From the NCBI RefSeq assembly GCF_036365525.1, contig NC_090392.1, positions 74,602,345-74,666,344 of the forward strand: 64,000 nucleotides of DNA. Direction: 5' to 3'. The DNA comes from Heterodontus francisci (Eukaryota). Under the pieces are notes generated by a model. The model saw only the letters and a list, made by a program, of their open reading frames with translations, had not been told where the DNA came from and searched no databases. Numbering within the stretch: position 1 is the stretch's first letter; each line of letters opens with the position of its first letter. This document shows positions 25,257 to 64,000 of the stretch, in pieces. Made by a program: the position numbers and the translations under genes.

Positions 25257-25623
25257 GACTTCCCCTTCACAGAACCGAAAGTAAATGGTAAGTTGAAAAG
25301 TTGGTTTCGATTTCCGTGACTGAAAACTGTCGGGAGCAAGAGGCAGATAGGAGGTGATGAGTCTTAATTCTGACTTTTGGAAAGAACTTTGCGGTGTAGT
25401 TAATTTCATCGATGAATTTCGCGATTATTGGAAAGATGATAAATGTCACTTTCATACACTGAGCGGCAAATCGATCCGTTTAAAGGTTGGCAGCAGAAAG
25501 AACTTTTCAATCATTTGATTTCTTGTACATAACAGGTTTTTTTAAAAACGGGTGGTGGTGGAGAGAAGGGAGAGGGGTCTACGCAGCCCTGGAACTGTGA
25601 ATTGGAGGTAGAAACCGGTAAGA
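25257..25623 (+). promoter_or_regulatory. Candidate interferon-responsive promoter and non-coding exon 1 of Gig2 copy 1
   Basis: ISRE GGTTTCGATTTCC (25303-25315; reverse GGAAATCGAAACC), AGAACCGAAAGT (25271), TCACTTTCA (25446), donor CCG|GTAAGA (GT at 25618). Unique, relatively CpG-rich sequence. Confidence 0.55.
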
Positions 25624-26504
25624 AATGTTTTATGTGATTGTTGCAAAGGGGCACCAGACAGCAAAAGGGCGCCTATTCAATTGGGACCATAATTCATATA
25701 TATTTAATGTGTTAAACATGGAATAACAGAGACTGAACATGGGATAAAGATGTCACACAGATCTTTTGCTGCATTATCGCCTTTAAACAAGCATCCTTGA
25801 AGCAGACTTTGGGTGCCCCACTGGTCATCTGGCTCCGGCTACCTCACCATAAAAAAGGTCCTTGGGTATGTGACCATCTTCCATCCTGCGGACGTGTCCG
25901 ATCCACCAAAGCCGCCTGTGTTTGGTCAGTGCCAACACGCTTGGGATCTGTCTTTGAGAGGACTCCCACATTTATGATTTTGTCCTGTCAGGCCATACCC
26001 ATAATGCACCGCAGACAGTGAAGGTGGCCCATGTTTCACAGACATACAGCAAGCTGCTGAGATCGCGAATGACACTGGGGCTAAAGGGGTCAAATCAAGA
26101 GAATAGGTTGTATAGTCTAGATTTATATTTCCAGGTGTATGGAAGATTAAGGGGTGATCTAATTGAGATCTTAAGACAATTAAAGGATTTGATAGGGTAG
26201 ATAGAGAGAAACTATTTCTCTGGCAGCGAGAGTTCAAACAAGCGGGCATAAATACATACCCATCTAGGCACTTCCAGGCATTAACACCTAGCATCAGCAG
26301 AGGCCATCTAGTAAGGGTCAGACCCAATCCAGTTATTGCCTCATTTAATCTTAATGGACTATCCCCAAAAAAACAGGTCATGTCAACCTAATGGACCTCA
26401 ATAAACTATTACTCATACCGAAAGCCCAGTTGGTGTGAACACAGCCAGTTGGTCTCTGAGAAGGGCTACTTTGGAATAATGCAATGCATAGCTGGGTTAC
26501 TTCT

Positions 26505-26858
26505 TAATAGTGTCAGCCTTGGCTCTAAACCACAGGGTAGAAGGTTGTAAAGCCCCACTTCAGAGACTTGAGCACACAACCTAGGGTGACACTCCACTGC
26601 AGTACTGAAGGAATGCTGCACTGTCAGAGGTGCTGTCTTCTGGATAAGACATTAAACTGAGACCTGTCTGCCCTTGTAGACAGGATGTGAAAGCTCCCAA
26701 GGGAGTATTTCGATGATGAACAAAGAAACTCTCCCCGAGCTTGGCTGTTCTTACATTACAAAAGTGAGAATACTTCAAAAGTACTTCATTGGCTGTAAAA
26801 CACTTTGGGATGTCCTGAAATCATGAAAGACGCTATATAATTGCAAGTTTTTCTTTCT
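26505..26858 (+). mobile_element. Deu-domain tRNA-SINE in the putative intron
   Basis: Reverse complement of the 5040-5446 family. Confidence 0.75.
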
Positions 26859-27186
26859 AATTGAACTTGATTTTAACCCTGAACATACTGAAATGAGAAG
26901 ACAGAATTTAAAAAAGTAGGAGAAAAATTTCACATTTTGTCACGTTAGAAAATGAATACACAAAGTACAGACAATGTAAACATATAAACCTAACCCAGAT
27001 ATTTTAAAGGGTTTTTACTCTGTCTTTCTGGAGAAGTCTAAATATACCAATTCTTCATTTTACAGTCTCTCACTAGTTTTCTCATGAAAGTATACTTCAG
27101 GCTGTGGGTGAGACCTTAGCAATAAATGTTTCCTCTTACAGGTCTCATGTGACAACAGAAGAAGAAGGTAAACACCGGTCAGAAAA

Positions 27187-27831
27187 ATGTCTGTTGAGTT
27201 TTATGGGTGGCAGGTCATCTACGAGGATAAAGGGCACCTGAAATCGGGACAGGAGCTTCAAAGTGGCAGTGGCTATACTATGTACCATGGGACCCACAAA
27301 AACAATGCTGCAAATATAATATGTTCAGGGTTTGTACCATCCAAGGATGGGCTCCTGGGTCCTGGCGTGTACATTAGCAGAGATATGAATAAAGCAAGGG
27401 CATACCCAAAACAAATAGCAGCCCAGGATAGAGTGGTCTTCAAGCTGAAAGTTAGAGTTGGAAAAGTGAAGAAAATAGATATGGATAATCATCCCCTTCA
27501 AACAACCTGGCATCAGAATGGCTACGACTCTGCCTGGATCCCACCGAAATGTGGGATGATGTGCATTCCTAGTGGAAAAGAAGAAGACTGCGTCTGGGAT
27601 CCCAAACGGATTACGGTGGTGGATATCGCCTATGCAGATGACCAGGTCAAGAAGGATCTGAGGAAGCTGATACGCCAACAGACGATGGCCAAGAAAGAGA
27701 AGGTCAAGGGTCAGTGTGACATCTGTGGCTTTCAGAAATATTCGTCTCATTTAACTCAGAGATGCTGGGGGTGTGAGAAGGTCATCTGCCCTTTTATGAG
27801 CAAACATGTTTGTAAACAAAGAAGGAAATAG
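27187..27831 (+). CDS. gig2: Gig2-like PARP-like ADP-ribosyltransferase with C-terminal Cys/His finger (214 aa), copy 1
   Basis: Intact ORF with YTMYHGT, GLLGPGVYISRD, LKVRVGKVKKID, HPLQTTW, GYDSAWIPP and EEDCVWDP, typical of the Gig2 family; acceptor tttcctcttacag ends at 27141. Confidence 0.9.
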   Translation: MSVEFYGWQVIYEDKGHLKSGQELQSGSGYTMYHGTHKNNAANIICSGFVPSKDGLLGPGVYISRDMNKARAYPKQIAAQDRVVFKLKVRVGKVKKIDMDNHPLQTTWHQNGYDSAWIPPKCGMMCIPSGKEEDCVWDPKRITVVDIAYADDQVKKDLRKLIRQQTMAKKEKVKGQCDICGFQKYSSHLTQRCWGCEKVICPFMSKHVCKQRRK

Positions 27832-29427
27832 GGAGATTTTGCTGGTGGTTGCTTTTAAACCATTGTCTGTTTTTGAATGAGCTAATTTTTCTCTTCAGTC
27901 CTGCTCCTTCCCTTCACTATTAATATTAAGAATATCAGGAATAAGGAAAGGTCTTTAGATCCAACAAGCTGTTTCCCCAGTTGCCTGCTTCTCACCATAT
28001 CCATCAATTCTATCTCCTTCCAGAAACACATATGATTGTGTCGCAAGCCCATTTATACATCGAAATGGCCAATGACATAGACACCATATTCTGCTTTGGG
28101 CAAATAAGCTTTGTGACATTCCTTCTCAGCCCAAATTTCCAAATGTTTCATTAACTCCTCCTTCACATGCTTCTCTGAAGCTGGAAGGCAGTTGATTGGC
28201 CCTCCAGCTTCAAGAGCCTATTCGTCACCCTTAATTGGACAGGCAACTTATCTCCATGCCAATTAAGGGGGTGTCCTGGTCAAAATTCCAATCCCGGGAG
28301 TGGGCTCGGGACTCGGAAACAGTGTTGGCTCCCATTTTCCGCCCTGAGGCAAAAGTTCAGCCACATAAATCTAACACTCATACAAGCATCAGGAGTCCTC
28401 CCCTAGAAAGCTTAGAGAGTGAATACACCACTCCACGTGTTACTGAGTCATACATTGTAGGAGTGTTCCAGGCTCAAATCTCCATGTTGAGTTGGGAGAT
28501 TTCAGATGGAGTAGCAGTTTGGGTGCTGCTATTTGCTTGATCTGTCTTGGGGTAAGCAAGAGAAAAATCAGCCAGGGCACCTGTTCATGATCACCATCCA
28601 GCCCAATCCATTCAGCCGTGCATGAGCAGTTTCAGGCAAGGAATGGATTGGACTTAGCTGTGATGCCATCTGTGGTTAAATAGCTTGCCCTGACTATTTA
28701 AATGAACACATAATAAATGACCAATGGATGACTAGCCACACATATGGAGGTGTACGCCAAGGAGGAGGAGAGTAGATCAAAGCACACAAAGGCCTGGGCT
28801 ATTGTGGTAACCACTTTGTAAGGATCATGTTTCTGTATCATGATACAGAGATACAAGGTGTGGAAGTCCTTTCTTATTACAGTAACATTGTACAATATAC
28901 AATATCAAGTTTACAGTTTCAACTAAACTGCCTTCTTTCATTACATTGTTGTCAGAAACAGAAGTAACACTAATTAGATTTTGCAGTAAGTGGGTATAAT
29001 ATTGACTTCAGGGGATATCATGCTCTATAATAGTGTAATATTTAGTTTTCCATTGTCCTTACCTATTTAAAATAACAGTTAAACTGTTCACAAAGGTGTT
29101 TCACATGTATGAATTAACTTATGTGCTACCAAAGGAAATTAACCCCTGGGGTTTTGAGGAGATAAACTTTGCACTAAACTCATATGGGCAATACTCTTAA
29201 TAGTCTGTGGTGTTTCCTGCTTACTTTTAAAAATGTACCACTTTCTACAATGATTTACTTTTTCTATTGTGAATTAGCACAGCCTGCATTGTAAAACTGC
29301 ATAAAAAATATGTCAAAGGAAGTTGGATATGAATCATCTTGTAGTGAACATTATCACAGCTCAGTACTGGTAAAGGAACACAGCTTTGGCAGAAAATGTT
29401 TATGTCTAAACTTTTTCCATTTGTTTA

Positions 29428-29433
29428 AATAAA
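29428..29433 (+). terminator. Candidate polyadenylation signal of Gig2 copy 1
   Basis: AATAAA at the end of an AT-rich unique tract about 1.6 kb downstream of the stop codon. Confidence 0.3.
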
Positions 29434-29569
29434 GAGCCTGTGAATAATTTTGGAATCCTCATGTAACTTACACTTGAGACATCTGTGTCTAAAAATGGTG
29501 GAGTGATTCTTTGGCAAAGGGAAAAACTCCTTTTGATAAAACAGCCTTGAAGATAAAGGTGCTTTTTAA

Positions 29570-29955
29570 ATTCATTCTTGGGACGTGAGCATTGCTGGCA
29601 AGGCCAGCATTTATTGCCCGCCCCTCTCATGGCCCATGAGAAGGTGGTGGTGGTGAACTGAGTGGCTTGCTAGGCCATTTCAGAGTCAACTACATTGCTG
29701 TGGGTCTGGAGCCACATGTAGGCCAGACTGGGTAAGTTTGGCAGATTTTCTCCTCTGGAAGACTTTAGTGAACCAGATGCTTTTTTTTTACAACAATCCA
29801 GTAGTTTCATAAGCATTATTATTGAGACGAGTATTTCATTCCAGATTTATTAATTGATTGAATTTAAATTCCCCCAGCTGCTGTGGTGGGATTTAAGTTC
29901 ATGTTGCCGGAGCATTATTCCAGGCCTCTGGATTACTAGTCCAATAACATTACCA
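29570..29955 (-). mobile_element. Bipartite tRNA-headed SINE sharing head and tail with the Zenon-like LINE
   Basis: Tail ggccagcatttattgccc joined to gagtggcttgctaggccatttcagag...gattactagtcca. Confidence 0.75.
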
Positions 29956-30227
29956 TTCTGTACCTTTTTCATTCTTGGTCACCAACTCCAAGTGTGAGGG
30001 CAAGCGAGCAATCAACGTTTGCGCTTCTGCCTGTGCTGCTGTGTGACTGGGGATGAGGGAGGCTGGTGCAAAGTGACTCTCCCTGCCAAACTCTCCTCCT
30101 CTCTGTCCATGCATAAGCACATGGATAGTATCAGAATACTTTCCCCAATGGCTTAGAACGTGAGCATCTGCACCCAACAGACTAGGACTGTCCAACAATT
30201 GATTTTTGCAGGAAAAATGAAGAAAGA

Positions 30228-30625: not shown

Positions 30626-32243
30626 CACACAGTTTAGGCCCATTGTAATTCCCCTAACAGGAGTGGTATGAGGGGTATTACAGTTGGCCTGAGCACCCTT
30701 TAGGCTAAAGAGGGAAAACTGGCCAGGGATACTATTCATAACCACCATACAGCGATCTCCACTGGAAGTTCAACAGCTGGTACAAGGATGAGAATCTTTA
30801 GATATAAGTAGCAATTCCCATTGGAACAGAAAATGTTAAGAGATTTGACAGTGAGATTCCAAATTGATGAGCTTTGATAAGGTAAAGGAGGTAAAAGACT
30901 CTTCTGATGCCCTACGTCATTTTGACAATTTCCAGTTTCCTGGCCCTAACCGCCTCCTCTTCACTATAGACTTCCAATCTCTCTACACCTCCATCCCCCA
31001 CCAAGATGGTTTGAGGGCTCTCCGCTTCTTCCTTGAACAGAGGCCCAACTACTCCCATTCACCACCACCCTCCTCCGCCAGACTGAACTTGTTCTCACTT
31101 TGAACAACTTCTCCTTCAACTCCACTCACTTCCTTCAAGTAAGAGGTGTTGCGAATAGGTACCCGCATGGGTCCTAGTTATGCCTGTCTTTTTGAGGGAT
31201 ATGTCGAACATTCCTTGTTCCAGTCCTACTCTGGCCCCCTCCACCAACTCTTTTTCCGGTACGTTGATGACTGTATTGGTGCCGTTTCCTGCTCCCGCCC
31301 CGAACTGGAAAACTTTTTCAACTTTGCTTCCAATTTCCACCCTTCTCTCACCTGACATGGTCCATCTCTGACATTCTCTATCTCCATCTCTGGGGATAGG
31401 CTGTCTACTAATATTCATTATAAGCCCACTGACTCACATGGCTACCTTGACTACACTTCCTCACACCCTGTCCCCTGTAAGGACTCCATTCCATTCTCCC
31501 AGTTTCTCAGACTCTAATGCATCTGCTCTGATGATGCAACCTTCCACAACAGCTCTTCTGAGATGTCTCCCTTTTTCCACAACCAAGGATTTCCCCCCCC
31601 CCCACTATGGTTGAAAGGGCCCTCAACCGTGTCCAGCCCATTTTGCACACCTCTGCCCTCACCCCTTCCCCTCCCTCCCAGAACCACAACTGGGTTCCCC
31701 TTGTCCTCACTTTCCACCCTACCAGCCTCCGCATCCTCTGCCATTTCTGCCACCTCCAGCGTGATGCTGCTAACAAACGCATCTTCCCCTCCCCTGTCAG
31801 AATTCCAAAGGGATCATTCCCTCTGCGACCCCTGATCCTCTCCTGCATTACCCCCAACACCTCGGCCCCTTCTCACAGCACCTTCCCATGCAACTGCAGG
31901 AGGTGTAATACCTGCCCATTTACCTCCTCTCTCCTTGCTAACCAAGATCCCAAACACTCCTTTCAGGTGAAGCAGCGATTTACTTGTTCTTCTTTCAATT
32001 TAGTATACTGTATTCACTGCTCACAATGCAGTCTCCTTGTTTGGCGACCACACGCAGACTGGGTGACCGCTTTGCAGAACACCTCCGCTCAGTCCATAAC
32101 CATGACCCCGAGCATCCTGTCGCTTGCCATTTCAACACTCCCCCCTGCACTCATGCCCACATCTCTATTCTGGGCTTACTGCAGTGTTCCAGTGAACATC
32201 AACACAAGCTCAAGGAACAGCACCTCATTTACCGATTAGGCAC

Positions 32244-33328: not shown

Positions 33329-33366
33329 CAGTTCTGATGAAAGGTCACTGACCTGAAACGTTAATT
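33329..33366 (+). ncRNA. Minimal type I hammerhead ribozyme with intact catalytic core
   Basis: cAGTT-CTGATGA-aAGGTC act GACCT-GAAAC-GTT-AATT. Confidence 0.7.
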
Positions 33367-35835: not shown

Positions 35836-35985
35836 TTTCTATTTCAGGATATTGAAATTGAAAGTTAAATATTGCCGAGGAGTGTGAATTTTAAGCTGCT
35901 CTCAAACTTCGGAAGGAATCTACTTTTACAGCTTAAACTTTTCATCCACTGACTCAATTCAGATCAGTTGATCAAGTTGGTGAGT
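35836..35985 (+). promoter_or_regulatory. Candidate ISRE pair and upstream non-coding exon of Gig2 copy 2
   Basis: TTTCTATTTCA (35836-35846), GAAATTGAAAGT (35854-35865), donor TTG|GTGAGT (GT at 35980). Confidence 0.4.
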
Positions 35986-37053
35986 TAGTTGTTATGTTAT
36001 ATATTGAGTATTTTGGACTGTTTATCGGATGTCTAAAAGACATGACCACTACAGACATTTTATATATGACTCCTTCCTGATTGTTTCTCTCATTGTAACT
36101 GTTTGAAGTATATGTTTTACCACTCTGTACGTGAGACCCATTTTGGGTTTTGAATTCTAAATGTAGCACACTTGCTGGTTGAGTGGATAAATGTCCTCTG
36201 CATGAGCTTTACAAACCAGGAAGTATCAGTCATAATTCCCAACGTGTCTAACTGGGGTGGGGCTACAATCAGCCTCAGTGCCCTGACCAGAGAAGGAAAA
36301 AAAAATCAGGCTTCCTGCTCCTGATTTCTCTCCTGAGAACTTTCCTGAAAAAATGCGGTTATCAGGTGAGGACAGGACTTGACTTCACAGCGATGCTCTC
36401 CATGGTTGAATATCCTACTGGTATTCATTGACCAGTTATTAGGTGGGGGGAGGGGGGTTTGACACCCATGAAATAGTATCCTGGCTTCAATCAACAACTT
36501 CAGGAACAGCTCGGGGAAAATGGAGAGCGACTTATGTCACTGATTAGTTGATATTGTTTCTATTGTTCTTAGGGCTAATGGGATCAAGGGATAGGGGGAG
36601 AAAGCGGGAACAGCTTACTGAGTTTGGATGATCAGCCATGATCGTATAGAATGGCGGAGCAGGCTCGAAAGGCCAAATGGCCTGCTCCTGCTCCTATTTT
36701 TCTATGTTTCTATAACCCAGTGATATAAATATTGTTGAAGAATCATGGAATCGTGCTGCAGAGAAGAAGACCCTTCGGCCGAGTGTGCCTGTGCCAGATC
36801 TTTGAAAGAACTATCCAAGTCCCAGTCCCCATCTTTTCCCACAGCCCTTGAAAGTTTCCTTTTCAAGTGTATATCCAATTCCCTTTTAAAAGTTATTATT
36901 GAATCTCTTTCCACTACCCTTTCAGGCAGCGCATTCCAGATCATAACAACTCACTGAATAATAAAGAATTCTCTTCATTTCCCCTCCGACGCTTTTGACA
37001 ATTATCTTAAATCTGCAACCTTTGTTTACTGACCCTCCTCCAGTGATATCAGT

Positions 37054-37778: not shown

Positions 37779-38952
37779 GATATTTCCTCATTTAATCTAT
37801 CAAAAACCCTCATAATTTGAATGTCTGTATTAAATCTCCCCTTAATCTTCTAAGGAGAATAGTTCCAGTTTAGCTAGTCTCTCCACAATGTTCTGCAGAC
37901 CCATGATGGAATTAGTGTGGTCACACCCAAACTAATGGCCATAAATATAAGATAATCACTAATAAATCTAACAGGGAATTCAGGAGAAGCTCCTTTACTC
38001 AGGCAGTGGTCAGAATGTGGAACTTGCTACCACAAGGAGTCGTTGAGGTGAATAGCATGGAGGACTTTAATGATAAGCTAGATAAACACATAAGAGAGAA
38101 AGGATTAGAAGGATATGCTTATGGGATTAGATGAAGAGGGATAGGGATAGGATCATGTAGAGCATAAACACTGGCATGGACCTATTGGGCCGAATGGCCT
38201 GTTTCTGTGCTGTAACTTTATAGTCTGTTTAGGAATCCATTGGACATTGCTTTTTTTAAATTCAGGTGCAGGAATTTTACACAGGGGGTGTGTGAGCTTA
38301 GCCCTGGTCTATTAGTATTCACACACCACTTGCAGATGTGCAGATTGGAAATCTTACAAAATTGCATTTTGGCAGTAATATACATAATAGGGTCAAAGTC
38401 CTTCCTTGTTAGGTGGCTAAAACTCGGAACAAAGAAGGAAAGTAGGTGATATAGGGTATTGGTGCGTATGATATCTGATAGCATGTGTGCTGTAGGCCAT
38501 AGGCAGTTTGGGAAGCAAAGTGATTTTCCACATTGTAGAACTTAAACAAGCAATAGTTCCTTTCGGGAATGTTGTTACCCATCATTGCTGCAACGTGTCA
38601 TGGTAGATAATTGGCCTGAAAGAGATTAAATGCCCGAAGGAACAAATCTGTAAGTTGACTCAGGCTTCAGTCAATCAAGGGGTGGAGCAGTAGGTCCTGA
38701 AGTCAAATTCGCAGAAACAAAAAGTAAGTGATGAATGATCCATTAAATGCTCATCTTACTGATAGGGTTATCTTAATACTAAAAGTATAATTAAGGAAAG
38801 TCAAGACAATAGGCACAAACAATCATCTCAAGCTACAAAAAAATTGAAATCAGCATGGATAGAATACATTCTGAGTCCCCACCCAATTGTGTGATGAAAG
38901 TTATTAGCAGTGGATTTATCTGGAAATGGTACGGATATTGCATCTGTAATAT

Positions 38953-39730: not shown

Positions 39731-39736
39731 TATGCT

Positions 39737-40044: not shown

Positions 40045-40750
40045 GTGCTGGACACCGGTTCATGCTAACATGTTTAAAAGGTGTGTGTGAGCTGGATTAA
40101 CGTGCTCTGAAATCCAAAGCTTGGATTTTTTTGATAGCCATCAGTCAGCTCACAGATGTCTCAGCTTTTGGTGTGATGTTGGCTGATAGCTAATTCTGCT
40201 GTAGGTGTGCATGCACACTGACTCACACTCGCACATAGCAGATGGCTTTGACATTGTCGCCCACACAGGTCATAGAAATAATAGAAAATTTCAGACACAG
40301 AAGGAGGTTATTTGGCCCATTGACACAAGTTTGCCATCAATACAGTCACATGCATGATCACTCAAACATTTTTAATATGTAATTTCACTATCACATACAT
40401 TCATGCACACACATATACATAGAATCATGGAATTATACAGCACAGAAGGAGGTCATTCACCCACTGTGCCTCTGCTGGGCATGTGCTAATTCACACAGAC
40501 GTTCACACATAGACAAACACAGAGACACACTCACAACTGTTCGGTATTCACAGCCTCACACATAAAAATGCTATCACATACGCATGCACACTTCCCTATT
40601 TGAGCGGGTTGTAACCGAATTAAATTAATGCAAGACAAAGCAATCTTCAAGGAGATACATCCGTTCTATTTACATTGCAATTTATTTTTGTTGTTTGTTT
40701 GCAGAGCAGCACTTCTCCGTGTGATTGAGCAGCTTGGAGTCAGTGGCGTG

Positions 40751-41404
40751 ATGGCGTTGACGTTTTTTGGATGGGAGACTATTTATGACAATCATCATCA
40801 TTTGCAGTCAAATCAGGAACCAGTGAGTGGGAGAGAATATACCATGTACCATGGAACCTCAGTCAGCAATGCAAAGTCTATAATACAATCAGGCTTCAAG
40901 CAATCAAGCAAGGGGATGCTCGGCCCTGGAGTTTATGTTAGCAGAGACAAAGAGAAAGCTCGGAGGTATCCAATCAACAGTCCGAATGATAGAGTTATCT
41001 TAATGCTAAAAGTACGAGTAGGGAAAGTCAAGAAAATAGACAGAGAAAATCATCCCATGGCAACAACTTGGAATCAACAGGGATACGATACAGCTTGGGT
41101 CCCTCCCAACTGTGGAATGAAAAATGTTCCCAGTGGATTGGAGGAAGACTGTGTTTGGGATCCACAAAGGATCCGAGTGATTGATGTAATAGGTGCCCCT
41201 GATCCCATAACAACACAGCAGTTGAAAGATTTGCTTCAAGCAAGTTTGAACAGCAAACCTGCGTCCAGACTGGAATCAGCTGAGCCCTGTGGGGTCTGTA
41301 AAAACAACATGGTACCTTCTCATCAGTTACAGCTCTGCTGGGGTTGTGGACAGACTATCTGTCCTTTTATGGGGAAACACTTCTGCAACAGCAGTAGAAA
41401 GTGA
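40751..41404 (+). CDS. gig2: Gig2-like PARP-like ADP-ribosyltransferase with C-terminal Cys/His finger (217 aa), copy 2
   Basis: MALTFFGWE aligns with MSVEFYGWQ of copy 1; YTMYHGT, GMLGPGVYVSRD and EEDCVWDP present; acceptor ttgtttgtttgcag ends at 40704. Confidence 0.9.
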   Translation: MALTFFGWETIYDNHHHLQSNQEPVSGREYTMYHGTSVSNAKSIIQSGFKQSSKGMLGPGVYVSRDKEKARRYPINSPNDRVILMLKVRVGKVKKIDRENHPMATTWNQQGYDTAWVPPNCGMKNVPSGLEEDCVWDPQRIRVIDVIGAPDPITTQQLKDLLQASLNSKPASRLESAEPCGVCKNNMVPSHQLQLCWGCGQTICPFMGKHFCNSSRK

Positions 41405-43089
41405 AACCTGATGGGACTTGGCACCTTCATTTTTTTCTGTCTTTTTCTTCAAGACTTTGACACTGCCTGGTTAATGAAATGCTGCTCTGAATCCAGGGTT
41501 GCAGGATGTGTTGGCACATTGGCCTTTCTCCTCTGTGAGGCCCGGGTTCAAATCTAGCCCAGGCTGATGTATTGAAAGTCTAGATGAAATGAGTTTATAG
41601 GTCATAGGCCCAAAGTCTGAAACCACTCCAAATTTGGTAGTAAACTGGCAGCCTTATTTAGAAGGACCATAAAAGCTGGTGTGGAAAATGGAAGAATGTT
41701 ATAAGTATGTAGAATGAACAGCACAGAAACAGGCCATTGGGCCACAGTAGCCTCTTCCCACCACTCTTCATCTCACCCCTATCAGAACCTTCTATTCCTT
41801 TCTCCCTCATGTGTTTACCAGGAGTAGGTCGGGGTTGTATTATGAAGTAGGCTGTGCATTCACCTCACATGTACTTACTTAATGCTTCCACTATGTGGTT
41901 GATGTGGAAAATTCAATTTCCAAACTCTTTCATCTTCCCATTTTCTGCTTCATAAATCTTGGTATCCAATTGCTCAATCTCCATTCCTCGACTTTTTAAG
42001 TGGTTGGACACTGCAGCCTCTCCACGCTCGCTGAGTAAGTCACCTTCCCCAAAAGTGCACAAAAAATTGGCGAATTCTTTCTCACTGCTAGCACTTGTAA
42101 TTTTGGAGTTTTGGGAAGGAACTTGCATATTACACACCACCACTGATATAATAATCCACCTTATAACACTAGCTTCCCTAGAGACTGATAAAAATATTAA
42201 TGCTGATGTTGATCAGCGACAATTAAAATGGGCTGAATGGCCTCTTTCTGTGCTGTCTGATTCTATGGCATCTGAACCTTGATCTTCCTTAAACATGGAA
42301 AATTTAGAATGGGAATGGTAATAAATCAAGTGTTCTTTGGGAGGGCTAGCATTACTGTGATGAGTCAAATGCCTCTTTCTGTGCTGTAAAACTGTTATGG
42401 CTTTATGACAGTGAATTTCTGTGGCCATTCGCTGTGAATAATTCACCCCTTTAAGCCAGTACCTCAGAATACCAGCACCTAGTGTGCTAAGTAAAAGTCA
42501 TTCAATAATGGCACATTAGTGTTTTGAGACCTAGCACGATACTCTAATTTATGTTAAATTATTACCCTTCTTATTGTTGTAATTTTCTGCTGCAAAAAGA
42601 AACAAAATCCTTTGGAAAAGCCACGTATTCCATCACTACTACAGCGAGTTATCTCAGTCTTGAACTGAGGTCTTTGGAATACGAGACACCTGAGGAAATT
42701 CAACCATCTCTGGAACATGATACGACGCAGTCAATTTATTAAGCCTGGTGCTTTCAATTCATAAAACTTCCCTTTGTTGCCAGCTTGCAGCATGGAAAAA
42801 CTTTTTTTTAGAAAAAGATTTCCCACTTTCAAACTGAATGGGAGGGTAAGTCAGAGAAAAAAAGTGAAAGGTTTAAAACATAACTTTTAGGGACAACATA
42901 TTTGGAAAGGTAGATGAGTTAGATTAGATAGAAAAATAGTCCAAGTTAAATCAGGAGAGTCGGCCAGAGCAAGCAGGGAGGAAAAAAGGGTAGAACGAGG
43001 AAGGAATGGCAGGAAGAACAGGTGCAGCGCTTATCTTTCTGTTTTTCATATGGATTTTCATAGTTTAGCATTAATATTCCAACATAAAT

Positions 43090-45445: not shown

Positions 45446-48400
45446 GTTGCTGATGTCCCTGACTCCTTCACGTGCTGGAAGTGTGTCCAGCTGCAGCTCT
45501 TGTTAGACCGCATGACGGCTCTGGAGCTGCAGATGGACTCACTTTGGAGCATCCGCGATGCTGAGGAGGTCGTGGATGGCACGTTTAGCGAATTGGTCAC
45601 ACCGCAGATTAGGATTGCTGAGGGAGAAAGGGAATGGGTGACCAAAAGGCAGAGAAAGAGCAGGAAGGCAGTGCAGGTGTCCCCTGCGGTCATCTCCCTC
45701 CAAAACAGGTATACCATTTTGGATACTGTTGAGGAAGATGGCTCACCAGGGGAAGGCAGCAGAAGCCAGGTTCATGGCACCGTGGCTGGCTCTGCTGTTC
45801 GGAAGGACGGGAAAAAGAGTGGAAGGGCTATAGTCATAGGGGTTTCGATTGTAAGGGGAGTAGATAGGCGGTTCTGTGGTCGAAAATGAGACTCCCGAAT
45901 GGTATGTTGCCTCCCAGGTGCATGGGTCAGGGATGTCTCAGATCGGCTGCAGAACATTCTGAAAGGGGAGGGTGAACAGCCAGTTGTCGTTGTGCACATA
46001 GGCACCAATGATATAGGTAAAAAACGGGATGAGGTCCTACAAGCAGAATTTAGGGAGTTAGGAGCCAAGTTAAAAAGTAGGACCTCAGAGGTAGTAATCT
46101 CAGGATTGCTACCAGTGCCACGTCAGGATGAATGTGTGGCTTGAGAGATGGTGCAGGAGGGAGGGGTTCAGATTTTTGGGACATTGGGACCGGTTCTGGG
46201 GGAGGTGGGACTATTACAAATTGGACGGTCTACACCTGGGCCGGACTGGAACCAATGTCCTTGGGGGTGCTTTTGCTAACGCTGTTGGGGAGGGTTTAAA
46301 CTAATGTGGCAGGGGGATGGGAACCAAATGAGGAGGTCAGTGGACAGTAAGGAGGTAGTAACTAAAGCCTGTAAGGAACTAGATAATGAAGTCAGCGTGA
46401 CTAAGGGAAAGAGTAGACAGGGAGCAGATGATGAACGTAAAGGGACTGGTGGTCTGAGGTGTATTTGTTTTAATGCAAGAAGTGTAGTAGGTAAGGCAGA
46501 TGAACTTAGGGCTTGGATTAGTACCTGGGAGTATGATGTTATTGCTATTACTGAGACTTGGTTGAGGGAAGGGCATGATTGGCCACTAAATATCCCAGGA
46601 TATCGATGCTTCAGGTGGGATAGAGAGGGAGGTAAAAGGGGTGGAGGAGTTGCATTACTGGTCAAAGAGGATATCACAGCTGTGCTGAAGGAGGGCACTA
46701 TGGAGGACTCGAGCAGTGAGGCAATATGGGCAGAACTCAGAAATAGGAAGGGTGCGGTAACAATGTTGGGGCTGTACTACAGGCCTCCCAACAGCGAGCG
46801 TGAGATAGAGGTACAAATATGTAAACAGATTATGGAAAGATGTAGGAGCAACAGGGTGGTGGTGATAGGAGATTTTAATTTTCCCAACATTGACTGGGAT
46901 TCACTTAACGTTAGAGGTCTAGATGGAGCAGAATTTGTAAGGAGCATCCAGGAGGGTTTTCTAGAGCAGTATGTAAATAGTCCAACTCGGGAAGGGGCCA
47001 TACTGGACCTGGTGTTGGGGAATGAGCCCGGCCAGGTGGTTGAAGTTTCAGTAGGGGACTACTTTGGGAATAGTGATCACAATTCCGTAAGTTTTAGAAT
47101 ACTCATGGACAAAGACGAGAGTGGTCCTAAAGGAAGAGTGCTAAATTGGGGGAAGGCCAACTATACCAAAATTCAGCAGGAGCTGGGGAATGTAGATTGG
47201 GAGCAGCTGTTTGAAGGTAAATCCACATTTGATATGTGGGAGGCTTTTAAAGAGAGGTTGATTAGCGTGCAGGAGAGACATGTTCCTGTGAAAATGAGGG
47301 ATAGAAATGGCAAGATTAGGGAACCATGGATGACAGGTGAAATTGTGAGAGTAGCTAAGAGGAAAAAGGAAGCATACATAAGGTCTAGGAGGCTGAAGAA
47401 AGACGAAGCTTTGAAAGAATATCGGGAATGTAGGACCAATCTGAAACGAGGAATTAAGAGGGCTAAAAGGGGTCATGAAATATCTTTAGCAAACAGGGTT
47501 AAGGAAAATCCCAAAGCCTTTTATTCATATATAAGGAGCAAGAGGGTAACTGGAGAAAGGATTGGCCCACTCAAGGACAAAGGAGGAAAGTTATGCGTGG
47601 AGTCAGAGAAAATGGGTGAGATTCTAAACGAGTACTTTGCATCGGTATTCACCGAGGAGAGGGACATGACGGATGTTGAGGTTAGGGACAGATGTTTGAT
47701 TACTCTAGGTCAAGTCGGCATAAGGAGAGAGGAAGTGTTGGGTATTCTAAAAGGCATTAAGGTGGACAAGTCCCCAGGTCCGGATGGGATCTATCCCAGG
47801 TTACTGAGGGAAGCGAGAGAGGAAATAGCTGGGGCCTTAACAGATATCTTTGCAGCATCCTTAAACACGGGCGAGGTCCCGGAGGACTGGAGAATTGCTA
47901 ATGTTGTCCCCTTGTTTAAGAAGGGTAGCAGGGATAATCCAGGTAATTATAGACCGGTGAGCCTGACGTCAGTGGTAGGGAAGCTGCTGGAGAAGATACT
48001 GAGGGATAGGATCTATTCCCATTTGGAAGAAAATGGGCTTATCAGTGATAGGCAACATGGTTTTGTGCAGGGAAGGTCATGTCTTACCAAATTAATAGAA
48101 TTCTTTGAGGAAGTGACAAAGTTGATTGATGAGGGAAGGGCTGTAGATGTCATATACATGGACTTCAGTAAGGCGTTTGATAAGGTTCCCCATGGTAGGC
48201 TGATGGAGAAAGTGAAGGCGCATGGGGTCCATGGTGTACTAGCTAGATGGATAAAGAACTGGCTGGGCAACAGGAGACAGAGAGTAGCAGTGGAAGGGAG
48301 TTTCTCAAAATGGAGATGTGTGACCAGTGGTGTTCCACAGGGATCCGTGCTGGGACCACTGTTGTTTGTGATATACATAAATGATTTGGAGGAAAGTATA

Positions 48401-49331
48401 GGTGGTCTAATTAGCAAGTTTGCAGACGACACTAAGATTGGTGGAGTAGCAGATAGTGAAGGGGACTGTCAGAGAATACAGCAGAATATAAATAGATTGG
48501 AGAGTTGGGCAGAGAAATGGCAGATGGAGTTCAATCAGGGCAAATGCGAGGTGATGCATTTTGGAAGATCCAATTCAAGAGTGAACTATACAGTAAATGG
48601 AAAAGTCCTGGGGAAAATTGATGTACAGAGAGATTTGGGTGTTCAGGTCCATTGTTCCCTGAAGGTGGCAACGCAGGTCAATAGAGTGGTCGAGAAGGCA
48701 TACGGCATGCTTTCCTTCATCGGACGGGGTATTGAGTAGGTCATGTTACAGTTGTATAAGACTTTGGTTCGGCCACATTTGGAATACTGCGTGCAGTTCT
48801 GGTCGCCACATTACCAAAAGGATGTGGATGCTTTGGAGAGGGTGCAGAGGAGGTTCACCAGGATGTTGCCTGGTATGGAGGGTGCTAGCTATGAAGAGAG
48901 GTTGAGTAGATTAGGATTATTTTCATTAGAAAGGCGGATGTTGAGGGGGAACCTGATTGAGGTGCACAAAATCATGAGAGGTATAGACAGGGTGGATAGC
49001 AAGAAGCTTTTTCCCAGAGTGGGGGATTCAATTACTAGGGGTCACGAGTTCAAAGTGAGAGGGAAAAAGTTTAGGGGGGATATGCGTGGAAAGTTCTTTA
49101 CGCAGAGGGTGGTGGGTGCCTGGAACGCGTTGCCAGCGGAGGTGGTAGACGCGGGCACGATAGCGTCTTTTAAGATGTATCTGGACAGATATATGAATGG
49201 GCAGGAAGCAAAGAGATACAGACCCTTAGAAAATAGGCCACATGTTTAGATAGAGGATCTGGATTGGCGCAGGCTTGGAGGGCCGAAGGGCCTGTTCCTG
49301 TGCTGTAATTTTCTTTGTTCTTTGTTCTTTG
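45446..49331 (+). mobile_element. Near-intact CR1 (HER1-like) LINE
   Basis: ORF1 (CWKC, SGNH-like VVVHIGTND) with a TGA at 45887 and a short deletion; 811-aa ORF2 (NARS, ITETWL, GDFN, SDH, GVPQGSVLGP, FADD); (TTCTTTG)3 tail. Confidence 0.95.
46304..49249 (+). pseudogene. CR1 ORF2 (APE endonuclease + reverse transcriptase), broken once near 48737
   Basis: Open for 811 codons, then a stop at 48737-48739 (probably created by a short deletion); the same frame resumes as MLQLYKTLVRPHLEYCVQFW. Confidence 0.9.
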
Positions 49332-55362: not shown

Positions 55363-56599
55363 ACTTGACTAGAAAATATTTGCAGTTCCTTCAGGCACTT
55401 GGTGGGGTTTCTTTTCCCTTGATGGCAAAGTTTCACTTTCAATTCAGCAAAAAAGCATCACAGTATCTGTTCCGAGATGACGGTATTTCATGTCAGTCGA
55501 TGTGAATTCATTTGATTTTCGGTAAATTGATAACAGGAAACGCCTGCTTTTGAAAACGTATGTCTATGTGCAATTTTTGCCTGCAGATTTTTGTTGCTTG
55601 CTGTCCTCTCATGGGTTATGGCTGTTTATTATTACCCAGGTGATGCTATCACACAGATACTTTGCCCAAGGGACCAGTCATCATTTGTGAGCCTGCACAA
55701 GTGCCAGCTGACAGTAGTGTGTGATTTAGTGCAACCCCTGAGACTCATCTGACAGGCACAAGCACACACTTCCCGACATGAAGCGCTGGCTAATGATCAG
55801 GGTTGAGAATCGTGGTAGATTCTGCCCTTTCTTAGCCCTGGCACATTGAGGCTGTGTGTTGTATCCCAACCACCAAATCCCATTGATTGACCTGTTACAT
55901 GCGTGCTGCAGTTTCTGCTTTTGTTTCCATATCAAATCAGTAAAAGTTATGTTATTTTGACTTAATGTTTCTAACTTGGACATCCCATGAATAAATGCAT
56001 TTTTAGAACTGGAGATGGGTAACATTAGAATATGCAGCATTTTATTGCTCAACACTAGTTGTCATGAGGTCATTAATGGGCAACTGCATAATGTGAGACT
56101 GGAGTGACATGTGGCTAGATGAGGCAGGAATAGCAAGTTTCATTCGCTGAGGGCATCACTGAATCAGTTGGGTTTTTGTGGCAATAGAATCATAGAATGA
56201 TACAGCACAGTCGCACAAACAATTTAAAGGGGCTGTGCACGCAACTCGTCTGCTCACTCCAAAAGAAAATTAGAGGAAACATTGATATGGTGTAAAAGAC
56301 TGGAAATGAATTTGATGTGCTGATCAGTCATGCTGTAATTAAATGGCAGGGAACTGAATGGCCTACTCAGTCCCTAATGTTACTCTGTTACCTCAAATAA
56401 ATCACATTCAGCCGTATAAACTCACGGGAATGTAAGAAATGTTTATACGACTTGTCCTAACGATTTAAGCTGTCGTATCATTCTGGTGAACCTACACTGT
56501 ACCCCTCCAAAACCAATGTACCTTTGCTGTGATTTTGTGCCCTAATCTTAATGCAGTACTCCAGATGGTGTTTGACCAAGGCTCTGTACAAAGCCAAAA

Positions 56600-58620: not shown

Positions 58621-59171
58621 CCACAATCTTGTCACTTATTGCCACAACTATTTGCTGTACACTAATTGTCTACTGCATTCCCTACATTAGAACAGTGACT
58701 ACATCATTGGCTGTAAAGGTCTTGACGTCGCTATATAAATACAAGTTCCTTTATTTTCCCCTTGACCCACACTATTCCACAGCTCTGCTCTTGGGTTACA
58801 AATCATGTCACAGCTCCTCATTATGTTTACTCCAGTCTACTATGGATAACCTCTGGCTAAAAGACCAGGGGTAATAATTGACATAATTTGTTGTTTAATC
58901 CCAATCTCTGATTGTTTAAGGATTGCAACTAAATTGATCAAATGCAATGAAAATTATTAGCAATCAATGGGAAAACATGAATGCTGCAAATCTGAAGGAA
59001 AAAGATTTTGATGTATTTTTGGGAGGTGCGGGCAATTGAGGGGGTGGTGGTGGTGGAGGAGTCCGTAACTGACAATAAACTGTAAAATAGATTCAGGGTG
59101 TTGGCTTGATTTGAGATACCTTGATTAAATCTTCTCTCAACCACTGACACGCAAGGATATCGTTGTTTGGA

Positions 59172-59263
59172 GGAAATGAAACTGAAACTTTGAGAAGTTG
59201 TTTATAAAGTCCAGATGTGTGCTCGCCCGACTGCAGAGTTCCTGTCCTAGTGAAGAGGTGAGT
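59172..59263 (+). promoter_or_regulatory. ISRE-TATA promoter and short non-coding exon 1 of Gig2 copy 3
   Basis: GGAAATGAAACTGAAACT (59172-59189), TTTATAAAG (59201-59209), donor GAG|GTGAGT (GT at 59258). Confidence 0.75.
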
Positions 59264-59824
59264 GCCAAAAAACTGTCTACAGTTCAGTTCACACTAAGAA
59301 CTAGAAGGAATATGGAGAGAACATTTCTTTACGAAGTGAGTTGTTAAGATCTGGAAAGCACTGCCTGAAGGGATGGTGAAAGCAGATTCAACGGTAACTT
59401 TTAAAAGGGAATTTGGGCATAAACATGAAACGGAAAAGAATGCATGACTATCGGGAAAGAGCAGGGGAGTGGGTCTAATTGGATAGCTTTTTTAAAGGGC
59501 CAGCACAAGCAGGAAAGGGCCAAAGAGGCTCATTCTGCACTGTAAATTCTTTGATTCTATGACAAAATTATGATATGAGACAAACCCAATCTAGAGTAGT
59601 GTTTGGTGTTTTGTTAACTTAGTAATGATGACAGAATACAGAGGAGAACAACAAAAATAATTCTGTCCCTTGGGGTTTTAACAGTTCAGAAATTTTAAGA
59701 TTCTCAGTCTTGTTTTCTTGGGGAAGGAGACTTCGTGCTAAGAGAATTGAAGCCTTCAATTCATGAAATCGCTTGACAAAGTTTATGTCGGTAAATTGTT
59801 AAGTATGTTGAAGGATCACAAGTT

Positions 59825-61354
59825 TAAAATAAGAAAGTTCAGAGGATGAAATGAACTTGGTGCCATTTTTTCAGACCGAGGATGGTAGGAGTTGTGAGAT
59901 CAGTTACCAGGCAAGGCACTGAAAGCAGGAGAGAGAGGTAATGGTAAGATGGGGTTAAAAGGTTGGTAGGAGGGTTTAATCCCTGAGAAAGCATTTATCT
60001 ATCAGGGCTAATGGTCTTTTCCTGAAACATATTTGCTATTACAGACTTGCAGCCAGTGTTCCCCCTAATTTTCCTCCATTGTGCGTGGCCTGTTCGTTGT
60101 ACTGCGCGGTATGTCTTGACTGTTGGGTTGCTGCGCACGCATGCATCTTAAACAGAACGCTGGTTGTACGTGGCCTGTTTGCTCCACTGTGTGGTACGTT
60201 CCAGATTACTGCACAGCCAAGGATGTGCACAGTTTAGGAGCACTGCCCGCAGTACTGAACTCAGATTTCTTTTGGAAAAGATGTTGAAGTTATATTTTGA
60301 CTTGTATATTTTGAAGTTATGTCATGTCATGCTATTAAACTTTACTTGATATATATTTCTTGTGTTTCCTAATTTGACCAATAGAATAGAGACAAGTATA
60401 AAGTAGGTTTTACAATGAGTCAAGTGTCTCACAAACTTGGTGTAATTATTACTAATTACAGATACTGAGAAGTTGGCTAGCCTTCAATCTTGGCCGAACT
60501 GTAAATCACAGTGACTCACGACTTGTAGGTAATGTCAGTGTAAGAATCCGTTCACTTCTTACCATTTGTTTTTCACTTTCTAATTCATTCTTTTGCCCCA
60601 CCTTGTGAAGCGATCAGTACTAAATTCATCCTTTGAGGCTTGCTTTCAAGATTTGTGCAGACATCAATGCAAACATCTTCTCAGTCAGTTCAAAGGAATG
60701 TCCAGTTGATCTGAGCAATACTTTCTTTCTCATGTTTTCTCATTGATGTCAGTAGATTAGGGATTGAAGTTTTACATAACAAAATTTATCAGCCATGTAG
60801 AAAATGTCAACCTTTTCCTTACCTGTTCCATGGAAAACTATTTCTCAGAATTCTCTGCAACTTCCTTAAATACCAGAGCTCTGTCTAACTTGTTGGTGCA
60901 ACTACATTTCGAGTGCTGTGTAAAATTTGGGGCATTATTAGTGAATTGTAATGAGGGACAAGGATGAATTTTAATGAAAAATAAGAAGACACCAGTTTTT
61001 CACCTGCAAATAGTAACTGAACAATTGGAAAATCAAGTTTCAAATCCATGATTTCATTGTGTAGAAGAAGAAGCAAATCGCCTATTCATTGCTGCAGGAG
61101 GATTTCACCTCCAATGTTACAGAAACAAACTTATTCCCTGCAGAGAAAGGAGACTGCGATTGCTGGCTATAATATACCCATAATTCATCCAATTTTCTTT
61201 TCAACAATGTACCACAAGCCTAAAATAAGAAAGTGCAGAGGATGATATGAATTGGTGCCATTTTTTCAGACCGAGGATGGTAGGAGTTGTGAGATCAGTT
61301 ACCAGGGAAGGCACTGAAAGCAGGAGAGAGGGGTAATGGTAAGATGGGGTTAAA
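59825..61354 (+). repeat. About 134-bp direct repeat pair (59825-59959 and 61221-61354)
   Basis: taaaataagaaag...ggtgccattttttcagaccgaggatggtaggagttgtgagatcagttaccagg...gatggggttaaa occurs twice with few differences. Confidence 0.9.
60054..60245. mobile_element. Short hAT-like MITE
   Basis: TIRs CAGTGTTCC and GGAGCACTG; decayed 8-bp TSD cttgcagc/cccgcagt. Confidence 0.55.
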
Positions 61355-61619
61355 GCACAATATAAAACACTTACTCAGATGACCTGCTGTGTTGTGCCGG
61401 TGATGGTGAGGGAAGTATCACGATGCCTTGTACAGCACCTCAATGCTTTTCAAGATCACCATTTCATTTATTTCCCCTCGATTGTGCCCACTTCTGTGGT
61501 GCTGGCATGCTTCAATGTCCTCGCCCGAGTGACGATTCTTTATGTGTGAGCGTTGACAGTAGACATCGGGCAGGATATTCTGCTGCTGGGGCATCACAGT
61601 CAAACTAAAATAAGTAGTA

Positions 61620-61997
61620 TTTCCAGCATTTTTTGTTTTTATTTCAGAACTTCAGAGCATGACTGGCCTTTTTTATATTTTATTTTATTTTTAACCGTGT
61701 GCCTGCGTTTCTTGTAGTCAGAGATGCTCATTATTCTCAATGTTCACTCTCTCTGGACTAATGCTTTGTCTTTCACCACAAGCATTAACGCACTCTTTGC
61801 CTTTGTCCCAGGACAACTTTGTTATTTAATCTCTCCTGCCCTCTGCCCTATCAAACACCTTCCCCTTTGTTCTCTTCCCCACTCCCTCCCCATCACTTGC
61901 TTAAAACCTAATTCTTTTCTAAACTTTGCCAGTTCTGCTTCTCTCTCCACAGATGCTGCCAGACCCTCTGAGTATTTCCACCACTTTCTGTTTTTAT
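61620..61997 (+). mobile_element. Penelope-like 3' tail fragment lacking the hammerhead
   Basis: ttcagagcatgac...ctaatgctttgtctttc...ccacagatgctgccagacc. Confidence 0.75.
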
Positions 61998-62180
61998 AAC
62001 AGTCAAACTAAAACCTGACCTTACCGGACATCCATGGGGTGCAAACAGGTGTAAACAAACAGTGATCAAAAGCAGAAAGCTCAGCAGTTTTTTGCCTTAT
62101 CCAGTGCAATGAGCACCCCAAAAGTGGAGGTCAGCTAGTTAACTCCGCACAGTTTTGGGATCAAACCCATGTTCTTTCAT

Positions 62181-63270
62181 AAAATAAAAACAAGAAATGC
62201 TGGAAATACTCAGCAGGTCTGGCAGCATCTGTGGAGAGAGAAGCAGAGTTAACGTTTTGGGTCAATGACCCTTCATCAAAATTGGCAGACCCAGAAATAT
62301 AATAGCTTTTAAACAAGTAATGTGGGGTGGGGCAAGAGACAACAAAAGAGAAGGTGTTGATAGGACAAGGTCACAGAGAATAACTGACCAGAAGGTCATG
62401 GAGAAAAGGTAAATGGTATGTTAATGGTGTGGTGAAAGACAAAGCGTTAGTACAGAGAGGGTGTTAATTGACAGAAAACTGAACAGCCCGGCCCGAAGCA
62501 CAAATATGAAAAAACAGTTGGTAGGCACATTAGAAACAAACTAAACAAACTAAAACAAAATAAACACATAAAAAAGAAAAAAGAACTAAAAATAAAAATA
62601 AAACGTGGGGTCCGTCATGCTCTGAAATTATTGAACTCAATGTTCAGTCCAGCAGGCTGTAGCGTGCCTAATCGGTAAATGAGATGCTATTCCTCAAGTT
62701 TGCGTTGATGTTCACTGGAACACTGTAGTGATCCCAGGAGAGAGATGTGGGCATGAGAGCTGGGGGGAGTGTTGAAATGGCCAGCAACTGGATGCTTAGG
62801 GTCATGCTTTCGGACTGAGCGGAGCACTTCCGCAAATCAGTCACCCAGTCTGCGTTTGGTCCCCCATTGTAGAGGAGACCACATTGTGAGCAGCGAATAC
62901 AGTGTACTAAATTGAAAGAAGTACAATTAAATCACTGCTTCACCTGAAATGAGTGCTTGGGGGCTCGGATAGTGAGGAGATAGGAGGTAAATGGGCAGGT
63001 ATTATACCTCCTGTGATTGCAGGGGAAGGTGACATGGGAAGGGGACGAGGTGGTGGGGGTAATGGAAGAGGGACCAGGGTGTCGCAGAGAGAACAATCCC
63101 TTCGGAATGCTGACAGGGGAGGGCAGGGGAAAATGTGTTTGGTAGTGGTATCACGCTGGAGGTGGCGGAAATGGCGGAGGATGATACTTTGGATATGGAG
63201 GCTGGTTGGGTGGAAAGTGAGGACAAGGGGAATCCTGTCGCAGTTCTGGGAAGGAGGGGAAAGTGTGAAG
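62181..63270 (-). mobile_element. Degenerate 5'-truncated Penelope-like element
   Basis: Reverse complement of about 8470-9597; hammerhead remnant with mutated core at 62247-62286. Confidence 0.9.
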
Positions 63271-63569
63271 GTAGTACCGGAGACTCTGCTCCTGGCATGG
63301 AGACTTTCAAGCCAGGGGCACGAATCAGAGTATTGTTCACTGAGACCATGCTCTTTCCTGCTCTATGTAGATGCATTTTTAAGTGTAAGTGCCAGGCAGT
63401 GCATGGACACAATGAGCCATAAGAGGAGTTCACCAGTGAGGACTAACAGCATGAGAGAAATTTGATCTGATATTGCTGAAGGACTCAGTATAGAATTCAT
63501 ATGTCTTCTTCTGCATTTATTTTTCCTTGCTTTTGTCAAAGGTCAAGTTGACAAGTTCACCTGATTACC

Positions 63570-64000
63570 ATGGCATACGCATACAGAGGTATTTGGGCTG
63601 AAGAGGATGCACCTGGTTTTATTCCAGCATGTCTTCAAAGCTGTGCAACACCAGAGGACTGCAGGATCTATGTGATGTACCATGGAACCAGTGCCCAAAA
63701 TGCAAGATCCATTTGTAATCCAAGAATTGGTTTCAAACAATCTGAGTGTGGTATGCTGGGCCCTGGAGTCTATGTCAGTAGGGACATTCAGAAAGCCAGC
63801 AGATATCCAGTGGAATTGCCTGAAAGCGAGAGGGTTGTGCTTAAATTAAGAGTTAATGTGGGAAAGGTCATAAGGATAGATTACCAAGGGCACCCACTCC
63901 AGAAGACATGGCATTCTCGTGGGTTTGACACTGCCTGGTGTCCTCCAAACTGTGGGATGGTACGAAGTGGTCTGGAGGAGGATTGTGTCTGGGATCCCAA
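63570..64000 (+). CDS. gig2: Gig2-like PARP-like ADP-ribosyltransferase, copy 3 (runs off the window)
   Basis: Manual translation MAYAYRGIWAEEDAPGFIPACLQSCATPEDCRIYVMYHGTSAQNARSICNPRIGFKQSECGMLGPGVYVSRDIQKASRYPVELPESERVVLKLRVNVGKVIRIDYQGHPLQKTWHSRGFDTAWCPPNCGMVRSGLEEDCVWDP; Kozak accATGg; acceptor ttccttgcttttgtcaaag ends at 63541. Confidence 0.9.
   Translation, partial: MAYAYRGIWAEEDAPGFIPACLQSCATPEDCRIYVMYHGTSAQNARSICNPRIGFKQSECGMLGPGVYVSRDIQKASRYPVELPESERVVLKLRVNVGKVIRIDYQGHPLQKTWHSRGFDTAWCPPNCGMVRSGLEEDCVWDP

Follow-up and report, generated by a model that had tools for sequence, protein, structure and literature searches.

Gig2 genes are widely used as markers of the fish antiviral response, yet we found no mechanism for them in print (here and below, the literature was judged mostly from titles and the openings of abstracts, with few subscription papers). 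Interferon induction, antiviral activity and a weak likeness to PARPs have already been published for the family (PMC3617106, PMC3296712), which has been termed an ADP-ribosyltransferase (ART) family (bioRxiv 693333) and has been grouped with PARPs and the diphtheria-toxin/exotoxin A-like ARTs as protein-modifying ARTs (PMC5512222). Zebrafish DreI (Gig2I) is cytoplasmic and antiviral, and its interferon-stimulated response element (ISRE) is essential (PMC3296712). Gig2 has been recorded in sharks and rays (in both from expressed sequence tags), and in lampreys and amphibians (Zhang et al. 2013, PMC3617106), and the surprise of finding it in a shark is therefore limited. Here we analyze a Gig2 cluster in a 64,000-nucleotide stretch of the Heterodontus francisci genome (NC_090392.1, positions 74,602,345 to 74,666,344; hereafter the window, in which all positions below are given). 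We consider three results to be useful additions: an origin of three Gig2 lineages before the split of sharks and bony fish, a map of the predicted active site, and a Cys/His tail with eight possible metal ligands.

The window is repeat-rich, vertebrate-type DNA, in which three Gig2-related open reading frames (ORFs) lie on the + strand, g1 (27187-27831), g2 (40751-41404) and g3 (from 63570), encoding proteins that are 53-62% identical to one another. An initial annotation, made from the sequence alone, had described three intact, co-oriented and diverged paralogs, each with a splice acceptor 28-46 nt before the ATG and with motifs of the interferon regulatory factor (IRF) type beside an upstream donor site. 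The orientation and divergence are as described; the acceptors of g1, g2 and g3 lie 45, 46 and 28 nt before the ATG, and an ISRE near a donor is found upstream of each gene, at the level of motifs. The term intact holds for g1 and g2, which are complete genes with exact sequence copies in the protein collection searched, but is overstated for g3, whose frame is still open where the window ends after 143 codons (short-type relatives have ~160-165 aa); moreover, a fourth, decayed copy had been missed. At the motif level (acceptors, donors, ISREs), all three genes have a non-coding first exon, a single coding exon and an ISRE near the start, with the following features:

25272..25315, + strand: g1 5' regulatory region, with an IRF-type motif at 25272-25282 and a full ISRE on the minus strand at 25303-25315
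25288..25359, + strand: two candidate donors for the first, non-coding exon of g1, a strong consensus at 25288 and an alternative at 25354
27142..27831, + strand: g1 coding exon; coding sequence 27187-27831, 214 aa, o/n lineage, ART domain and Cys/His tail
35836..35985, + strand: g2 5' region; ISRE-like motif at 35836-35845 (minus strand), ISRE at 35853-35865, acceptor after 35847, end of the non-coding exon at 35979, donor at 35980
38660..38916, + strand: decayed Gig2 copy of the g2 type, frameshifted and interrupted by stops, in the presumed g2 intron
40705..41404, + strand: g2 coding exon; coding sequence 40751-41404, 217 aa, p-like lineage, predicted active-site residues H34, Y62, K69, Y73 and E132, Cys/His tail at residues 180-212
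59172..59263, + strand: g3 5' region; tandem ISRE at 59172-59189, end of the non-coding exon at 59257, donor at 59258
63542..64000, + strand: g3 coding exon; coding sequence from 63570, short lineage, cut by the window end after 143 codons

Clustering in tandem, the presence of pseudogenes, and a gene plan of one non-coding and one coding exon are shared with the Gig2 family as described in flounder. The decayed copy matches g2 at 185 of 261 positions (71%, blastn E=2e-26; tblastn E=4e-6), and its frameshifts and stops appear in the three-frame translation. A donor-like site at 38724 falls within this copy and was set aside as the g2 first exon, for which 35836-35985 is the better fit. A 258-aa ORF from the in-frame ATG at 40628 was likewise rejected as the g2 product, since this ATG precedes the acceptor and the protein collection holds the 217-aa form and lacks the 258-aa form. 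The g3 coding exon has a second possible acceptor, after 63555. No tRNA or Rfam matches were found within the window.

The identification as Gig2 in the initial annotation is borne out both by similarity and by phylogeny. The best named matches of the window proteins are gig2o, gig2p, DreN, DreL and CauGig2, and the best named Gig2 matches span sharks, bony fish, coelacanth, lungfish, amphibians and lamprey. Identity to the window proteins is 50-68% for the named Gig2 members of the o, p, n and short types, with E values far below 1e-40. No amniote names occur among the best 120 of the 181, 967 and 990 matches of the three proteins, with lower-ranked and unnamed matches unclassified. In trees each gene nests among named members. 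Our first tree had 86 catalytic units, selected from 341 collected proteins according to their names and taxa, with only 149 columns and with one lungfish row lost to the cutting pattern, and the second used 44 rows and included the tail; zebrafish DreN and DreO are outside both, and like-named proteins of other species stood in for them. In the first tree, support is 100/99 for g1 in the o/n clade with bony vertebrates and 98/96 for g3 in the short clade, which also holds zebrafish l, i and h; g2 joins p at 96/39, outside the clade of g1. In the second, g1 again groups with o/n (100/99), g3 remains among the short forms (100/97), and g2 is sister to o/n (82/40). Because the placement of g2 differs between the two trees, strict orthology of g2 with bony-fish gig2p is not established and we call g2 only p-like.

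In approximately unbiased (AU) tests, monophyly is rejected for the 17 cartilaginous-fish rows (p=4e-112) and for the 41 teleost rows (p=2.5e-6); both tests were run after inspection of the tree, with groups defined by taxonomy. On synteny across elasmobranchs, named in the initial annotation as a check, the units within joined gene models from Scyliorhinus torazame and Mustelus asterias are ordered as in the window, and in Chiloscyllium and S. canicula the orthologs of g1 and g2 carry consecutive locus numbers. Since the shark paralogs sit in separate clades common with bony vertebrates, and since their order is kept in other sharks, both duplications predate the shark-bony fish split. Thus, by these sequence comparisons, the three lineages (o/n, p-like and short) are older than that split, which contradicts the published origin of the main clades by teleost duplication. 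In PMC3617106 the clades of chromosomes 21 and 5 are traced to the genome duplication of teleosts, with an emphasis on lineage-specific expansion, whereas the shark cluster re-dates the main Gig2 lineages to before the shark-bony fish split. A salmon preprint (bioRxiv 2025.07.01.662619) also has three clades that originate before the teleost duplication, with gar as the outgroup and, in its available text, sharks unmentioned. The age of the locus as such, which the initial annotation had placed before the shark-bony fish split, is supported by the trees and the AU test but had already been published in PMC3617106.

Two observations concern the joined models. A polyprotein reading of shark models of 672 aa and 759 aa was set aside in favor of read-through or joined annotation; in halibut, a comparable joined model conflicts with transcripts. 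More short copies may lie past the window end, as they do in the catshark model. Downstream of the g2 first exon, 8 of 9 residues translated from 36100-36126 match the linker in the joined model of S. torazame, which may be conserved intron sequence or a minor exon.

All three window proteins score above the Pfam cut-off of 26.7 bits for the PARP family PF00644 (30.7, 40.8 and 27.5 bits), in agreement with the PARP-like domain of the initial annotation, and the fold predicted for g2 extends this likeness. The AlphaFold model of g2 (105-sequence alignment, mean predicted local distance difference test score (pLDDT) of 86) folds as a single ART domain over residues 13-153, whereas PMC3617106 describes a weak N-terminal PARP-like stretch followed by a novel C-terminal part. 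Foldseek matched the model to PARP1 with E about 2e-6, and the VIA structure matches were led by tankyrase-2 (Z 10.9, root-mean-square deviation 3.1, 121 aligned), PARP2 (10.5) and PARP1 (10.2); lower matches include the diphtheria-toxin/exotoxin A-like ARTs (7-8.4), RES-type toxins (7.2-7.6), RhsP2 (6.6), and DarT and Tpt1 (5.7-5.9).

The predicted active site corresponds to that of the H-Y-E PARPs. H34, Y62, K69 and Y73 align with PARP3 in the printed alignments, and K69 falls on PARP3 K421 (with the chain offset applied), the equivalent of PARP1 K903. By the end points of the structural alignments (model 152 on TNKS2 1158, and model 153 on TNKS1 1312 and PARP4 568), E132 falls on TNKS2 1138, TNKS1 1291 and PARP4 547, provided that the last 20 residues are gapless. 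These three residues are the catalytic glutamates (PMC4980433, PMC10711553). Across 450 domains of the 341 proteins, the conservation is 436 of 442 for H, 443 of 443 for both Y and K, and 433 of 441 for E132; two tryptophans are also near-invariant (W107, 443 of 445; W116, 443 of 444). The His-Tyr-Glu triad is present in all three window proteins. Because the active-site residues are kept at 98-100% of aligned positions, the Gig2 family looks, in this model, like an active H-Y-E enzyme rather than a pseudo-enzyme.

Gig2 shares with the H-Y-E PARP/ARTD domains (tankyrase, PARP1-4) both the fold (Z 9.5-10.9) and the positions of His, Tyr, Lys and Glu, but differs from them in several respects. 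The identity is about 20% or less, the ~150-aa domain stands alone without helical, WGR, ankyrin or SAM domains, and the N-terminal acceptor region is shorter. The interferon-linked mono-PARPs mostly have Ile, Leu or Tyr in place of Glu, whereas Gig2 retains Glu. The diphtheria-toxin/exotoxin A-like bacterial ARTs belong to the same fold class, but Gig2 is without their delivery domains. In the Gig2 model, 21 residues of the domain precede the His; in PARP1 there are about 50, including an acceptor-site loop. This N-terminal loop of PARP1 is missing from the mono enzymes PARP3 and PARP4. In the polymer-forming PARPs (PARP1/2, tankyrase) a complete acceptor site has equivalents of both K903 and H826; in Gig2 the Lys is present, and the region of the H826 loop looks shortened, as judged from aligned ranges only. 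Since a short region before the His favors mono-ADP-ribosylation, we infer from the model that single ADP-ribose units would be transferred rather than polymer. Of the possible acceptors, protein is the most likely, because the PARPs score 4-5 Z units above the nucleic-acid ARTs and because relatives are fused to IBR, ubiquitin-like and poly(ADP-ribose) (PAR)-binding PBZ domains.

The C-terminus of g1 and g2 carries the pattern C-x2-C, a variable spacer, and H-x4-C-x2-C-x4-C-x5-H-x-C, with eight possible metal ligands, and it is probably a two-zinc module. The pattern is found in 126 of the 341 collected proteins and in 98 of the 99 g1 matches ranked P0022-P0120; the invariance of the tail in our alignment A1 is circular, because its rows were selected by the motif. 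The short lineage is without this tail, and g3 probably lacks it as well; g1 and g2 carry a Cys/His tail beyond what is present in DreI. The tail matches no family that we found: against known zinc-finger families (AN1, FYVE, B-box), Pfam on 105 members gave scattered weak matches only (FYVE in 3 of 105, best E 0.04), a search of the Atlas gave none, and the single-sequence model (pLDDT 54) was too poor for use with Foldseek. These negatives are no evidence of a new fold, and the spacing may be AN1-like. Neither the word zinc nor the word cysteine appears in the main text of PMC3617106, nor zinc in the available text of bioRxiv 2025.07.01.662619, and neither a study of a shark Gig2 locus nor a description of the tail was found in the literature as judged above.

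Using the ISRE consensus quoted in PMC3296712, we found 10 matches at eight sites in the window, compared to a mean of 3.3 and a maximum of 6 in 40 Markov simulations. Three of the eight sites, one ahead of each gene, have a G/GTRAGT donor within -30 to +150 nt (P=6e-4 against a background of 2.3%); this interval was picked after inspection of the data, and with 0 to +150 the count is two of eight (P=0.009). None of the three gene-linked ISREs is inside a repeat of the window. Near the other five sites there is no strong donor, and thus the motif by itself is not diagnostic. The best tandem ISRE of the three genes is that of g3, whose lineage includes DreI. The zebrafish gene has an ISRE at -48 to -39, a 70-nt non-coding exon and a 5' untranslated region intron (PMC3296712), and the layout of g3 is alike; induction and an antiviral effect have been measured for DreI. 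Two other matches stand apart from the gene starts. The paired consensus ISREs at 55406-55445, in unique sequence with no strong donor close and no Gig2 remnant, are possibly a distal enhancer or an alternative g3 start, and a full ISRE at 41396-41408, across the g2 stop codon, may be due to chance.

The first exon of g1 has an ambiguous donor, 25288 or 25354. The translation of 25301-25336 matches the N-terminal extension of a Chiloscyllium g1 gene model at 8 of 12 residues (E=0.12, weak alone), and the register of that model would favor 25354. The protein cluster of g1 includes a 176-aa H. francisci RefSeq isoform, the first 175 residues of which equal g1 and in which the tail is spliced off, and an internal donor after 27709 fits this form. 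Its 3' partner has two candidates, 35848 and 47800. At 35848 there is a long pyrimidine tract, and the exon concerned is the one with the ISRE upstream of g2; this suggests that it is in use, as the last exon of the 176-aa g1 isoform.

On balance, we think it somewhat probable that the Gig2 proteins are interferon-induced cytoplasmic mono-ADP-ribosyltransferases that act on proteins, where we infer catalysis, the protein substrate, mono rather than poly transfer, zinc binding and induction in the shark. Gene anatomy, family, phylogeny, residue conservation and the predicted fold come from this analysis, and induction, cytoplasmic location and antiviral effect come from the teleost papers. Virus sensing and interferon would activate IRF/ISGF3 factors, which would bind the ISREs; the small cytoplasmic Gig2 proteins would hold NAD+ through His and Tyr, and Glu132 would promote transfer of ADP-ribose, probably as single units, to viral or host proteins, by which replication may be restricted. 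The Cys/His module of g1 and g2 would most likely choose the target or the location, and the short type would act without it. Of the terms in the initial annotation, ADP-ribosyltransferase is a well-supported prediction, and interferon-wired holds for the ISRE motifs only; teleost paralogs differ in induction. Its remark that it knew of no identified substrate agrees with our search.

Several points weigh against this mechanism. Eight gig genes of salmon have ISREs and are unresponsive, so that presence of the motif and induction are partly decoupled (bioRxiv 2025.07.01.662619), and in ZFL cells poly(I:C) did not induce the zebrafish genes n, o, p and q, to which g1 and g2 are related (PMC3617106). 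The register of E132 comes from alignment end points rather than a printed alignment; the PARP4 matches extend as far as this residue. The Z-scores of the structural matches are moderate, likeness of fold does not fix the substrate, and the H-Y-E triad does not separate mono from poly enzymes. In addition, g1 and g2 are basic (pI 9.4 and 9.0), which also fits a nucleic acid substrate, and we found neither an enzyme assay nor a substrate for any Gig2 in the literature as judged above.

That charge, together with the minimal single domain and the near-invariant W107 and W116, would suit an enzyme that ADP-ribosylates viral RNA or DNA ends or bases, as do DarT, Tpt1 and RhsP2, with the tail binding nucleic acid. 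DreI restricts both an RNA virus and a DNA virus, and 6 of 105 members have weak Pfam matches to Tpt1/KptA. We consider this unlikely, given that the nucleic-acid ARTs reach Z 5.7-6.6 compared to 10-11 for PARPs and that the domain fusions indicate ubiquitin and PAR signalling. Hydrolysis of NAD+, or free or self-attached poly(ADP-ribose) as a signal rather than one marked target, is somewhat less likely again: it would be in keeping with the lack of an autoinhibitory helical domain, strict inducibility in teleosts, the retained K903-equivalent Lys and elongation Glu, the PBZ fusions in unnamed relatives and the Z-scores of the RES-type toxins, but the part that forms the N-terminal acceptor site in PARP1 appears much shorter and the best structural matches are transferases. 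Finally, the long forms g1 and g2 may be constitutive, non-immune or non-catalytic, with g3 as the only interferon effector. The uninduced zebrafish n, o, p and q and the superior tandem ISRE of g3 are what would be expected in this case, but zebrafish gig2o and gig2p are induced by IFNphi1 (bioRxiv 693333), both g1 and g2 have a consensus ISRE beside a donor, and catalytic residues are kept across all lineages; we regard this as improbable.

The favored reading, interferon-induced transfer of single ADP-ribose units to proteins, can be approached with one point mutant, now that the catalytic residues are named. A much broader proposal, which we hold only as speculation and think unlikely to be correct as a whole, is that the jawed-vertebrate ancestor had a three-lineage, interferon-controlled and catalytic Gig2 cluster, later lost in amniotes, that ADP-ribosylated viral nucleic acid or marked proteins for ubiquitin-linked destruction, and that was targeted by so far undescribed two-zinc tails in the long forms or, in lamprey, by conjugatable ubiquitin-like tails. 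If true, vertebrates would have an antiviral ADP-ribosylation chemistry separate from the mammalian PARPs.

Outside vertebrates, the family extends beyond the two algae reported in 2013, and 203 clusters at 50% identity reach E 1e-30. No close prokaryotic, phage or plasmid relative that might hint at a substrate was found: two scans of genome contigs for prokaryotic relatives gave 4 and 21 pattern matches, none confirmed, and tblastn against phage and plasmid records gave none at E 0.01; viral and metagenome contigs were outside this scope. Gig2 domains of non-vertebrates (Picozoa, Togula and unnamed records; P0463, P0407, P0438, P0430, P0453, P0473) are fused to PBZ, IBR, TPR/SRCR/Sushi or ricin-B lectin domains. 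Gig2 units of lamprey (P0349, Lethenteron reissneri; Lampetra in the same cluster) are fused to tandem ubiquitin-like domains that end in Gly-Gly, an ISG15-like layout that could allow conjugation of the enzyme. Other gene models join Gig2 to caspase, kinase and 2-5A ribonuclease, CARD, PXA/PX or Bud13 (P0435, P0386, P0382, P0353, P0364), some of which may be annotation joins.

Elsewhere in the window, the CpG-rich segment 7044-7115 is probably a conserved regulatory region of a neighboring gene; 17 of its 18 translated residues match the start of the Chiloscyllium g1 gene model, and the window's only two direct-repeat-4 elements, identical to each other, lie in it at 7074 and 7100 and resemble response elements of the liver X receptor (LXR). 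A young-looking long interspersed nuclear element (LINE) at 46304-49249 has an 811-aa ORF with endonuclease and reverse transcriptase, one stop, and 168 aa more. A 343-aa repeat ORF at 8090-9121, with a weak GIY-YIG match (21.7 bits, below the cut-off), is probably Penelope-like, with about 82% identical copies near 31324-32243 and 62182-63274. A tandem repeat with a 67-bp unit (6.2 copies, 92% matches) lies at 15418-15833.

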